Made by a program: the position numbers and the translations under genes | Virus record (IMG/VR): IMGVR_UViG_3300032236_001530 | Coordinates: 1 to 64,000 of that record | Length of the DNA stretch: 64,000 nucleotides | Reading direction: 5' to 3' (one strand) | Source of the DNA: a virus | Notes under the pieces: model-generated | The model's database searches: none | Seen by the model: the letters and a program-made list of their open reading frames with translations, nothing else | What the model was told of the DNA's origin: nothing | Shown: positions 58,520 through 62,182 of the stretch, one piece after another | Layout: the number at the start of each line of letters is the position of its first letter | How positions within the stretch are numbered: the first letter of the stretch is position 1

Positions 58520-58552
58520 AAAAAAGCCTCAGATTTCTCTGAGGCTTTTTTT
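58520..58552. terminator. Bidirectional intrinsic terminator
   Basis: aaaaagcctcag-atttct-ctgaggcttttt; same core as 31692. Confidence 0.85.
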
Positions 58553-59156
58553 ATTTAAAATAACCAAGTTCTTTTAATGATAAATAAGCAAAATAAACAC
58601 CAAATATACCCATAATAAGACTCATTGTATATACCGCATATACCACAATTAAGGCTGAGAATGATACCGATAACCAAGAAGCAATTCTTCTATTTTTATA
58701 TCGATTTTTAGAAAGATTTGCTATACTTCTAACAATCTGACCACCATCCATTGGATATATTGGTAAAATATTAAATATAAATAAAAACAAATTAATATTA
58801 TACATATCATTAACAAATTCATGTATTGGTCCAACCGGACAATAAGGCTCTATAAAATAACACAATAAAGAAAGAATTAGTGTACTTATAGGACCAGCCG
58901 CTGTAATTGGAATTGAATCCCTGTCGTGCATATTTGAATCTATTGCAGCAGCACCAGAAATCATATCAATTGTGATTCCATAAACTTTATAACCTTTTTG
59001 ATTAGCCATCCAAGCATGACCCAATTCATGTATTAGAACTGAAACAAAGACCGCGCCGACTGCAATTGGTGGTAGCATTAAAAATAATAGGAAGAACCAA
59101 ATACTAACTGATACTGGTGCTCCTCGGAAATTAAATAATTTAAACGATTGTTTCAT
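58551..59156 (-). CDS. Site-2 protease (peptidase M50)
   Basis: HELGH, AAGP, FNILPIYPMDGG. Confidence 0.92.
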   Translation of the reverse strand: MKQSFKLFNFRGAPVSVSIWFFLLFLMLPPIAVGAVFVSVLIHELGHAWMANQKGYKVYGITIDMISGAAAIDSNMHDRDSIPITAAGPISTLILSLLCYFIEPYCPVGPIHEFVNDMYNINLFLFIFNILPIYPMDGGQIVRSIANLSKNRYKNRRIASWLSVSFSALIVVYAVYTMSLIMGIFGVYFAYLSLKELGYFK

Positions 59157-59491: not shown

Positions 59492-59520
59492 AAAAAAGAC
59501 CAAGATAAATCTTGGTCTTA
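59492..59520 (-). terminator. Terminator closing the ncRNA cassette
   Basis: aagaccaagat-aa-atcttggtctt with U-tract on minus strand. Confidence 0.75.
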
Positions 59521-59529
59521 AAAATAAAA

Positions 59530-60445
59530 CGCTGAGATTACACGTTCAGTGTGGCATCTTTGACTGGATTATTGTTTCCCAGTTTTATCCACCATCTTTT
59601 GAATGGTATCACCACAGTGACGGTTAGTTTGACTAACCACTTCTTGAGTTACTGAATACTCTCCACTTACTCTGCTTACTCAACCCTCGCAGGCTGATTC
59701 GGGATTCGACCCCCTATAAGTTTTTCGATGAAATCACATCCGCCTTTCGAGCTTATGTGGCTATGGACATCCCATAACTAAGTAGTCACCTTTCTATCAG
59801 TAACTAGGTAACACTTTCGATTTAAGTTTTAATTTTTACGTCAAAAAGTAAATTTTAGTGCTTGTAGATTGTGTCGAAGTAGTGGTCACCTCTCAGCTCC
59901 CAAAGCTTTTGGCCTCAAGAATACTGGACTACTCCGTGTGATGCCTCCATCACAACTCTTTAAGATATCTTCACCACGATTCACCTTACGGCTCACCTAC
60001 ACCCTTGGTAGAGTGATTAGTGTTCATTAACAGCACCACCTGTACAATGAATTGTCTTTCGACTTTGAGACACCTCTCAAGTTGAAACTCGCGATGATAA
60101 TAACTGGTGGGTCACCATTTCTCGCAAAATTTCTACAGGTTATTCTTATTGCTCTTCCGAACTCAACTGAACAATCTACACTTGCCCAGTCACCAATCCA
60201 TTTCCCTACGGAGTTACCCTCAGTACTTCAGGATTAGTGATATCCTGCTTGCTTACTCGACCTTGGTTACCCAAGACGCAAACACAATTCGCAGTTGTGT
60301 TCACTTTATCCCCCTTTCAAGGTTTATTTAACGACTATAAGCGGCCGTTGTCTTCACATTAGCCGAAGCTAATGATTCAACATATCATTCAAGGATTAAT
60401 AGACCTCACTGTCTATCAACTTACGTCTCTTGTGAGAGAACCTTT
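59530..60445 (-). ncRNA. Large structured ncRNA, GOLLD-like (~900 nt)
   Basis: GC-richer, no credible ORF, many GNRA/UUCG hairpins, 10-bp long-range helix (59863-59872 with 60171-60180), downstream of tRNAs; family assignment from size, context and recalled motifs; boundaries approximate. Confidence 0.7.
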
Positions 60446-60447
60446 AA

Positions 60448-60460
60448 TTTCAAAGAACTT
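60448..60460 (-). promoter_or_regulatory. boxA-like antitermination element
   Basis: AAGTTCTTTGAAA, identical copy at 61095-61107. Confidence 0.6.
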
Positions 60461-60514
60461 TATTTATAGTTTTTATTTTTACTTTGTTTAGAAAAATAAA
60501 AAATATTTTTTCTG

Positions 60515-60586
<72 letters not shown>

Positions 60587-60594
60587 ATTTGTAG

Positions 60595-60754
60595 TAGCCC
60601 GTAGAGGATTCGAACACTCTGTTTTCTAACCGAAAAGTTAGACGTCCTAAACATCAGGTCACGACTTGAGAGGATTGGCACCTTCTCATAACCCACCTTG
60701 GAGTCGTTTTGTTGACCGTCTGTTTCTCTTGCGAGTCCAGTAGACGAACGGGCC
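60595..60754 (-). tRNA. tRNA-Glu-like gene with ~85-nt D-loop insert and 8-nt anticodon loop
   Basis: GGCCCGT/ACGGGCT+A; TTCGTCTACTGG…TTTAGGAC; TCTAA-CTTTTCGG-TTAGA; TTCGAATCCTCT. Confidence 0.75.
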
Positions 60755-60813
60755 AAATAATTACCTAACATTGAACTTTTTGCCATATAGGACTTAGTCA
60801 AGTTAGGATTTTG

Positions 60814-60887
60814 TAGCGTGTAGAGGATTCGAACCTCTGTTCTTCGGGCGAAAACCCGACCGTCCTGAGCCGCTAGACGAACACGCC
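60814..60887 (-). tRNA. tRNA-Glu-like gene with 8-nt anticodon loop
   Basis: GGCGTGT/ACACGCT+A; GTC-TAGCGGCTCAG-GAC; GTCGG-GTTTTCGC-CCGAA; AGAGG-TTCGAAT-CCTCT. Confidence 0.8.
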
Positions 60888-60904: not shown

Positions 60905-61298
60905 CAAAGATAAGAAGAATTTTTTAATCTACCAAATCTTTTTTCAATTTTTTTTATCTCGATTTAGTTGTTTACCTCCTTTCTGCCTGTAATCGGGAGG
61001 ATTACTGTATAATCAGGCTATTAACTTCTAAACCGATTTTGTTTTACAAAGATAAGGAGACTTTTTCATTTCACCAAATCTTTTTTTATTTTTTTTTCAA
61101 AGAACTTATCAGACGTTTCTGATTTGTTTTACAAAGATAAGGACACTTTTTTAATCTACCAAATCTTTTTCAAAAAAAGGGTTATGATTTTATCCTTCGT
61201 GATGGGGAGCGCTTATCATAATTAAGTTTTGCGTATTATACCAACACCCTTTGTTTCAATTGTGAATACAAAGATAGTATATTATTTTTAATTACAAA
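60905..61298 (-). promoter_or_regulatory. Four tandem Bacteroidota consensus promoters
   Basis: TATCTTTG at 60905, 61047, 61132, 61269, each with TTTG 20, 20, 20 and 18 nt upstream. Confidence 0.85.
61095..61123 (-). promoter_or_regulatory. boxB-like hairpin followed by boxA-like element
   Basis: ATCAGA-AACG-TCTGAT immediately before AAGTTCTTTGAAA. Confidence 0.55.
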
Positions 61299-61333
61299 AG
61301 TTTTTCTAAAATAATTTTTCAATATATAATTTT

Positions 61334-62182
61334 ATGAAGAAGATAATTACTTATATATGTTTTTTAACCTTAATAACATCTTGTGGTTTGTTTAAAAACC
61401 ATGTTAAAAGTGTTGATAATATTAAAAATACTTCTACAGATACACTATATGTAAACTCAATTAATATAGACTCTGTAAAAGAAATAAAAACAGAGGAGAT
61501 GAAACCTGATGAAGATGGAGAAGGCGTTGTTGATGTTGCTGATGGCTTGGCTGGTATGGGTAGTAATGAACACTCAAGAAAGGCTAATAGAAGACCAAGT
61601 AGTATAGAAGATAAACCAATAGAAGATAAGACTACACAAGACCAAATAATTAATCCAAATTTAGGTCTTGTTGCTTATTCTGTTCCATTAGAAATGATTG
61701 TAGGCAAAACTTATACAGCTAAACTAAGAATATCTAAAGAAAAAAATAAAATTGAATTGATAGGAGGTGATGGTGATCCTATAAGTGATGTTACAATAGA
61801 TTCAAAGATTACAATTGCTTCTATTAGGGTTGAACCTATTATGTCATCATCGTTAATATCAGATAGCTCAAAAATGGTAATACAAAATATATCATCACAA
61901 ACACAGGATATTGACAAAGATGGGTTTACTGAGTGGGAATGGAGATTAACACCGATAAAAGGCGGTGATGTTTTGTTAAGAATTGTTGTTGATGTTATTG
62001 ATCCAGCTACTAAGGTTAAGAAAGACATACCCGTTTATGATAAAGTTATAAAAGTTAAATCAAACTTAATATACGATATGGGTTGTTTTGTTAAAGATTA
62101 CTGGCAATGGCTTATAACTACAATAGTACTTCCATTTATTATTTGGTTTTATAATAAAAGAAGAAAAGAAAAAGAATCGTAA
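61334..62182 (+). CDS. Lipoprotein with C-terminal TM helix
   Basis: …LITS|CG; TEWEWRLTP; WQWLITTIVLPFIIWFY. Confidence 0.8.
   Translation: MKKIITYICFLTLITSCGLFKNHVKSVDNIKNTSTDTLYVNSINIDSVKEIKTEEMKPDEDGEGVVDVADGLAGMGSNEHSRKANRRPSSIEDKPIEDKTTQDQIINPNLGLVAYSVPLEMIVGKTYTAKLRISKEKNKIELIGGDGDPISDVTIDSKITIASIRVEPIMSSSLISDSSKMVIQNISSQTQDIDKDGFTEWEWRLTPIKGGDVLLRIVVDVIDPATKVKKDIPVYDKVIKVKSNLIYDMGCFVKDYWQWLITTIVLPFIIWFYNKRRKEKES

Follow-up and report, generated by a model that had tools for sequence, protein, structure and literature searches.

The window (the whole 64,000-nt stretch analysed here, part of a 155-kb phage record that is 83% complete) contains a compact cassette of structured RNA genes on its minus strand. 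All units share one orientation and follow one another in this order:

60814-60887, minus strand: tRNA-Glu-like RNA no. 1, 74 nt, acceptor GGCGUGU, 9-nt D-loop, 6-nt UUUUCG loop, no insert
60595-60754, minus strand: tRNA-Glu-like RNA no. 2, 160 nt, 107.9 bits with covariance model R1
60515-60586, minus strand: tRNA-Met (CAU); the 155-kb record has no other canonical tRNA
59529-59936, minus strand: conserved 3' domain of GOLLD RNA (Rfam RF02032, 269.8 bits)
59496-59519, minus strand: intrinsic terminator closing the cassette, the sole strong terminator call

The two tRNA-Glu look-alikes, one tRNA-Met and one GOLLD are the only RNA genes of these kinds in the record. The variable 5' domain of GOLLD presumably fills 59937-60514; a weak 5-bp terminator site is found within this region (60117-60105) and none among the tRNA-like units. 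Look-alike no. 2 lies about 660 nt upstream of the Rfam GOLLD match, beyond tRNA-Met, and is a neighbour of GOLLD, not a part of it. Promoter-like sites are seen upstream of the cassette, and in the leader (61037-61340, minus strand) they are overlapped by a unit of about 48 nt (61123-61170) that BLAST detects in two or three repeats in the leaders of syntenic relatives; these repeated units may be tandem promoters. Directly downstream of the GOLLD terminator lies a gene for an M50-family membrane metalloprotease (58551-59156, minus strand), which is syntenic in all fetched relatives; its homologs in phage-like contigs number more than 400. The succession of look-alike no. 1, look-alike no. 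2 (always with an insert), tRNA-Met, GOLLD and M50 protease is preserved in 13 of 13 syntenic relatives; in cassettes of this kind, spacers of 4-15 nt separate units that share one strand. Genes for glutamyl-tRNA synthetase (GluRS), CCA-adding enzyme, RtcB, Rnl1 and Rnl2 were searched for in the phage record, and none was found.

Look-alike no. 2 reads, from 5' to 3', GGCCCGU, UC, the D-stem strand GUCU, ACUGGA, an insert of 87 nt, A, GGAC and G, followed by UCUAAC-UUUUCG-GUUAGA, AAAC, AGAG(U)G-UUCGAAU-CCUCU, ACGGGCU and A. It is thus bounded by the acceptor stem GGCCCGU/ACGGGCU with discriminator A, and CCA is not encoded. ARAGORN does not call this gene, RF00005 does not match it even at E <= 10, and the sole match of look-alike no. 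2 alone to Rfam at permissive thresholds is noise. When positions 60652-60736 are deleted in silico, ARAGORN reports a tRNA-?(Lys|Glu) of 76 nt whose anticodon has only two bases, 'tt', so that the insert evidently interrupts a tRNA-shaped gene. The first-pass annotation had placed the insert inside the D-loop of a tRNA; the location holds, with the correction that the interrupted gene is not a canonical tRNA.

Much of the body of a canonical tRNA is nevertheless present: a 7-bp acceptor stem, U8, A14, G18 G19, A21, a 4-bp D stem of tRNA-Glu type (GUCU/GGAC), a 4-nt variable loop, and a T arm, GUUCGAAUC, with a 5-bp stem containing one bulged U and a 7-nt loop of GUUCRANYC type. The stems covary in the family, and the RNA retains the features needed for the L-shape and for recognition by enzymes that read the top half of tRNA. 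The anticodon arm is different. A canonical tRNA has here a 7-nt loop with the triplet between U33 and purine 37, and look-alike no. 2 has the 6-nt loop UUUUCG. The pair that closes this loop covaries in the family (C-G in 25 sequences, U-A in 8 and G-C in one, alignment A3), which shows that the loop has six bases and not eight.

The closest ordinary relatives are the tRNA-Glu(UUC) genes of phages, many of which are identical to look-alike no. 2 in the acceptor stem and D arm. The shared features are GGCCCGU/ACGGGCU with G1.U72, the D arm UC-GUCU...AGGAC, the 4-nt variable loop, a T arm of GUUCGAAUC type and discriminator A, and they recur in dozens of ordinary 71-nt genes. Unlike these genes, which have a 7-nt anticodon loop on a 5-bp stem and a D-loop of 8-9 nt, look-alike no. 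2 has a 6-nt loop on a 6-bp stem and a D-loop of 94 nt, and is missed by tRNA detectors. Judged from these sequence comparisons, the RNA that hosts the insert is a derivative of tRNA-Glu that cannot decode. An overlapping ORF of 74 amino acids (60577-60801, minus strand) was considered as a coding alternative and rejected, as it suffers +1 and -1 indels among homologs.

The anticodon arm and the parts of the insert are as follows:

60625-60642, minus strand: anticodon arm, 6-bp stem UCUAAC/GUUAGA with the 6-nt loop UUUUCG at 60631-60636
60649-60735, minus strand: D-loop insert, 87 nt, between G18 G19 A20 and A21
60726-60735, minus strand: hairpin 1, CUC-GCAA-GAG with a GNRA loop, covarying
60718-60725, minus strand: base of hairpin 2, 5' strand AAACAGAC, in which AAACA pairs with UGUUU, followed by tandem G.A/A.G
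60649-60656, minus strand: base of hairpin 2, 3' strand UGAUGUUU
60654-60718, minus strand: distal extension, with GGUC/GACC, the bulge AACAAA and a three-way junction
60714-60717 and 60657-60660, minus strand: GGUC/GACC helix, invariant in long forms
60702-60707 and 60661-60666, minus strand: junction helix ACGACU/AGUCGU, with double changes in L547
60689-60701, minus strand: linker CCAAGGUGGGUUA with the mini-hairpin CCA-AGG-UGG, nearly invariant in four distinct long forms
60667-60688, minus strand: T-arm-like hairpin UGAGAAGG-UGCCAAU-CCUCUCA, 5' strand UGAG(A)AGG

All helices listed in the first-pass annotation are present in the minus-strand sequence, and the minimum-free-energy fold reproduces every one of them. 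Its limits for the insert, 60652-60736, differ by a few bases from the structural borders, which we place at 60649-60735 because the base of the long hairpin is made of AAACA/UGUUU and the tandem G.A/A.G. The folding energy is no better than that of shuffled sequence (insert, z = -0.21; whole gene, z = -0.85), so thermodynamics alone is no proof of the insert structure.

Comparison of homologs is more informative. Hairpin 1 covaries between CUC/GAG and CCC/GGG; two of its three pairs have changes in both strands, and pairing holds in 98% of cells. In the base helix of hairpin 2, all seven pairs have been changed on both sides somewhere in the family, including replacement of A-U by U-A in L096 and L358. 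The helix GGUC/GACC is invariant in the long forms, and comparison is therefore silent on it. The T-arm-like hairpin has GAAAGG/CCUUUC in L368 and L439, a double change of one G-C pair to A-U, and in L547 it becomes UUGGG-AGCGUCA-CCCAA, alike in shape and different in sequence. The CCA...UGG mini-hairpin is also predicted in L547.

A T-loop motif consists of a reverse-Hoogsteen pair between U1 and A5 of the loop together with an intercalation gap. The loop UGCCAAU has U1 and A5 and does not vary among four distinct long forms; in L547 the loop is AGCGUCA. The suggestion that the insert is itself partly tRNA-like is consistent with the 7-nt loop and with the direct stacking of the hairpin on a 6-bp helix, in the manner of a T arm on the acceptor stem; given the replacement of UGCCAAU by AGCGUCA in L547, and the fact that no tRNA model detects the domain, it stands as a resemblance only.

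Two other pairings of the insert may be mentioned. RNAalifold, given three sequences, prefers to pair the D-stem 5' strand UCGUCU (60742-60747, minus strand) with AGACGG of the insert (60716-60721, minus strand). This fold was rejected as an alternative, having no double changes and being broken in L096 and L358; the modelled UCGUCU/AGACGG pairing may serve as a conformational switch in the long forms. The insert segment GGUUAUGAG (60685-60693, minus strand), which displays AUG, is a perfect 9-nt complement of CUCAUAACC (60548-60556, minus strand), the anticodon loop of the adjacent tRNA-Met. The complementarity is not kept in L368, L439 or L547, and the match is therefore probably due to chance or specific to the lineage.

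Relatives of look-alike no. 2 were gathered by exact-pattern scans of IMG/VR and JGI metagenomes, from contigs reached through the neighbouring M50 protease, and by running covariance model R1 over the fetched loci. The main alignment, A3, contains at least about 45 distinct family members, and later R1 searches have added further ones. Across these relatives the insert varies from 0 to 112 nt at a single site, giving D-loops of 8-9 nt (no insert), 20-25, 30, 35, 41-42, 49-53, 67, 94 and about 120 nt. Inserts of 12-112 nt occupy the identical site in at least about 30 related genes; in every insert-bearing gene it follows A-N-N-G-G-(N) and precedes A-GGAC. This is the length-variable pocket at position 20, beside the elbow contacts of G18 G19.

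In A3, 94.6% of pair cells are standard and 22 of the 32 pairs have been changed on both sides, counts that are inflated because the sequences in this alignment, as in A6, are related and fitted to the model. None of 500 shuffles equals this level of pairing, and slid controls reach 32-49%. Compensatory changes are found in the insert helices. The annotation's first option, an appended RNA domain, agrees well with these results: the insert is conserved, structured and covarying, and sits at one fixed site in many tRNA-like genes.

BLAST of the insert against GenBank phages gave no match; an exact pattern for the distal domain retrieved only chance coding matches in IMG/VR and nothing in 185k prokaryote genomes, where a pattern for the whole family gave 39 chance matches and no tRNA-like gene. 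About 100 of the 120 metagenome matches listed (most of L322-L441) belong to a repeat of moss-associated contigs beginning with CTACCTTTCGTCTAATGGACTCTCTGGTCCCAAACGGACGTAAAATTGTAAACAGTAAAC, which is unrelated to the insert and looks like a dispersed eukaryote repeat.

Several members depart from the arrangement seen in the window. The acceptor types GGCGUGU and GGCCCGU recur, paired and with tRNA-Met, in distant jumbo phages (L002/LR756504, L537 and L541), and insert-free look-alike pairs occur in jumbo phages that have no GOLLD. At L541:394-579 (minus strand) there is a type-A look-alike with acceptor GGCGUGU, a UUUUCG loop and a 112-nt insert of unrelated sequence; its phage (G003) is complete, 348 kb long, and has GOLLD nowhere. 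Upstream of GOLLD in L187, L294, L300 and L308 the look-alikes form arrays, with two to six seen per locus. Nearly all array units have the acceptor GGUCUGU, a similar T arm and a UUCG-capped hairpin in the D-loop, and their anticodon arms are diverse, with tetraloops, 7-nt loops such as CUUCGAA, or loops of 20-30 nt.

The distal part of the insert has its own history. At least five distinct long forms are known: that of the window (the same as L553), L559, L368, L439 and L547 (the same as L548), and there are probably more. Four of them are nearly identical, with 91-92% identity in the insert, 48-64% in the flanks and 75-87% in the 3' tRNA core. L553 has an identical 160-nt module, yet its neighbouring protease is just 75% identical. 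The fifth form, L547, replaces the junction helix ACGACU/AGUCGU by AUACUU/AAGUAU, so that four of six pairs are changed on both sides and all remain paired; enclosed by this helix are the CCA...UGG mini-hairpin and, beyond a spacer, a hairpin of 5 bp capped by a 7-nt loop. The same plan is thus kept with other sequence, which marks the distal domain as a three-way junction that keeps its shape as the sequence turns over.

Syntenic relatives with proteins 66-88% identical to those of the window have a UUUA loop in place of the distal domain, and the BLAST breakpoints against three of them (L549, L554 and L557) fall exactly at 60719 and 60653. Since close syntenic relatives have the UUUA loop only, the distal segment of about 64 nt is a lineage-variable indel. 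Ordered by identity of the protease to that of the window, the relatives have the following inserts:

82% protease identity: long insert, variant junction (L547)
79% protease identity: short insert
75% protease identity: long insert
72% protease identity: short insert
71% protease identity: long insert
67% protease identity: short insert

The interleaving of the two states points to repeated gain, loss or exchange of the distal domain.

Taken together, these observations make it highly probable that the insert is a retained structural expansion of a non-decoding, tRNA-like RNA. It would be an extra arm kept in the mature molecule, a lineage-variable graft in the D-loop pocket, made of three parts: the GNRA hairpin, a long helix with tandem G.A pairs, and the distal three-way junction. 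The graft site, after G18 G19 N20 and before A21, should leave the L-shape intact. A fuller scenario, to which we assign a probability of roughly 0.55, combines such a retained D-loop arm on a non-decoding tRNA-Glu mimic with processing of the cassette and a role for the mimic. The cassette would be a single transcript, from which RNase P and RNase Z of the uncultured host would cut out the tRNA-shaped units, thereby trimming the ends of GOLLD. The released RNA would be a mimic of tRNA-Glu, with its UUUUCR loop read by a protein rather than by the ribosome, and the arm would project from the elbow as an accessory surface for binding or blocking.

Which protein might read such a mimic is a more speculative matter, and a role of the look-alike as mimic or decoy is put forward tentatively. 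Candidate readers would be a tRNA-targeting immune nuclease, for which the RNA could act as a decoy, or GluRS. Among the targets that activated Cas13a prefers is tRNA-Glu(UUC) (PMC11042736), and evasion of anticodon nucleases has been suggested for phage tRNAs whose anticodon loops are altered (PMC10264068). Against either role is the content of the phage record, where no GluRS, CCA-adding enzyme or RNA ligase hints at a pathway. A still bolder generalization, and a doubtful one at present, is that the look-alikes form a new class of phage non-coding RNA, typically a type A / type B pair with tRNA-Met and often in a GOLLD cassette, that might mimic tRNA against a tRNA-directed system of the host, for instance as decoys that an anticodon nuclease or a Cas13-like effector cannot cleave, with the fast-evolving D-loop arm under arms-race selection. 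Were this true, the mimic class would be the first functional handle on the purpose of GOLLD cassettes.

The proximity of GOLLD suggests another role for the arm, namely that of an adaptor through which the look-alike would dock with the GOLLD nanocage, on its surface or inside it, or with a protein that binds both RNAs, the two then making one particle. GNRA loops are classic docking elements, and hairpin 1 is usually GNRA-capped. Look-alikes retrieved from tRNA-like patterns alone, with no GOLLD bait, lie about 0.1-2.5 kb from GOLLD on the same strand at nearly all loci, and each GOLLD-linked locus with look-alikes has at least one insert-bearing copy. The window shows exactly the context that has been published for GOLLD, which is found near tRNA islands, often after tRNA-Met, and whose linker can hold a tRNA or pseudo-tRNA (bioRxiv 10.1101/2024.12.08.627333; PMC12990946; PMC6582537; PMC5737381); tRNAs have also been proposed as GOLLD cargo from cryo-EM (bioRxiv 10.1101/2024.12.08.627333). 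Unlike those tRNAs and pseudo-tRNAs (RF02032), however, the look-alikes are outside the Rfam GOLLD match, and some belong to phages without GOLLD, such as G003 with its 112-nt insert. Moreover, among 82 loci with the GOLLD motif look-alikes occur at only about 6, the insert loops, when compared with GOLLD, showed no conserved complementarity to it, and close relatives with the same GOLLD do without the distal domain. We consider such docking unlikely.

Equally improbable is a purely passive function in the manner of MALAT1 and mascRNA, in which the look-alikes serve only as punctuation, supplying RNase P and RNase Z sites for the ends of GOLLD, the anticodon arm and D-loop are free to drift, and the insert is tolerated baggage. 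The top half of the molecule (acceptor stem, T arm and elbow) is indeed conserved, and in the arrays of L187, L294, L300 and L308 both the D-loop and the anticodon arm are highly variable; in L096, L239 and L282, the look-alike abuts GOLLD, beginning 9-15 nt past its 3' end. On the other hand, distant phages, some of them without GOLLD, have conserved both the UUUUCR loop and the two acceptor types, GGCGUGU and GGCCCGU. The insert is also more conserved than its flanks and keeps its shape through sequence turnover, so it is not neutral.

Removal of the insert after transcription, by an endonuclease and ligase or by self-cleavage, would leave a tRNA-like RNA of about 75 nt, and in-silico removal does restore a D-loop of normal size and detection by ARAGORN. 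A new type of excised element had been the other option of the first-pass annotation, and it fares poorly on several counts. The product would keep the non-decoding 6-nt anticodon loop; the inserts of 12-27 nt at the same site are simple hairpins too small for a ribozyme; Rfam detects no intron or ribozyme family; the record encodes none of the ligases RtcB, Rnl1 and Rnl2; and purifying selection acts on the sequence and helices of the insert as a folded domain, which is unexpected for a discarded spacer. Group I introns of bacterial tRNAs interrupt the anticodon loop, are about 200 nt or longer and have a P1-P9 core, so the earlier judgement that this insert is too short for a group I intron and in the wrong place remains correct: it has 87 nt, lies in the D-loop and matches no intron in Rfam. 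Where exon and intron meet, an intron of bulge-helix-bulge (BHB) type has two bulges of 3 nt with a 4-bp helix between them. Archaeal D-loop introns of this type resemble the insert in lying within the D-loop of a tRNA-shaped gene, but the present case concerns a bacterial phage and a conserved folded domain, and its junctions have no BHB motif; on inspection of the supported structure, the borders are in an open D-loop beside hairpins made entirely of insert. Excision is accordingly given little credence.

An odd working tRNA, in which counting a 5-bp stem gives an 8-nt loop N-UUUUCR-N' containing UUUC for quadruplet or frameshift decoding, is extremely improbable, as the flanking N and N' change together in the way of paired bases (C-G, U-A, G-C), and neither a 94-nt D-loop nor the tetraloop-capped or 20-30-nt anticodon arms of the arrays are compatible with decoding.

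Retention of the arm in a tRNA-like RNA thus remains the preferred reading, and since the gene departs from a canonical tRNA in anticodon-loop size, D-loop size and detection by tRNA models, lacks the marks of a group I or BHB intron and is outside the Rfam GOLLD match, we classify it as a tRNA-like RNA. Among known systems, partial parallels can be drawn with three. MALAT1/mascRNA reportedly contains a tRNA-like processing module; there, as here, a tRNA-shaped unit without a working anticodon loop stands beside a long structured non-coding RNA, with which it would in our case be co-transcribed, and an RNase P site would set the end of the long RNA. The units of the window are on the same strand, have short spacers and are followed by their only strong terminator after GOLLD, an arrangement consistent with a common transcript. 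mascRNA differs in being eukaryotic, in having no D-loop arm and in being a single unit. The variable arm of class II tRNAs and the expansion segments of rRNA likewise add a helix at an exposed, length-variable site, with length depending on lineage; the look-alike arm is in the D-loop (position 20 region) and not in the variable region, and extends to 87-112 nt, with a three-way junction at its end. Finally, the bacterial Y RNA YrlA, said to be a fusion of a tRNA-like domain with another module, also joins a tRNA mimic to a further structured module, but in it the tRNA-like part sits internally on a Ro-binding stem, whereas here a full tRNA body with acceptor stem has the module inserted in its D-loop; look-alike no. 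2 has no match to YrlA in Rfam.

The D-loop pocket of a natural tRNA fold can apparently hold a folded domain of about 90-110 nt, and we found no description of such a D-loop domain in the literature searched, for either tRNAs or tRNA-like RNAs. The GOLLD papers cited above and a review of non-canonical tRNAs (PMC7609411) contain no tRNA-Glu-derived family with a 6-nt loop and no D-loop expansions; in the literature searched, the look-alike family is undescribed. The comparison thus delimits a family of tRNA-Glu mimics that recurs in large freshwater phages and is supported by covariation, and ties it to the cassette of GOLLD, an RNA whose function is a long-standing question though the structure of its nanocage is known.

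One more element of these cassettes may be noted. In L237 and L238, a structured element beginning with GUUUUCGUAGUGGUUAACUU, which has no Rfam family at the gathering threshold, is conserved in the roughly 80 nt that directly precede the look-alike, between it and GOLLD or tRNA-Met. It contains the hairpins GUCUGUC...GACAG and GGUGGGUAC...CCCACAC.
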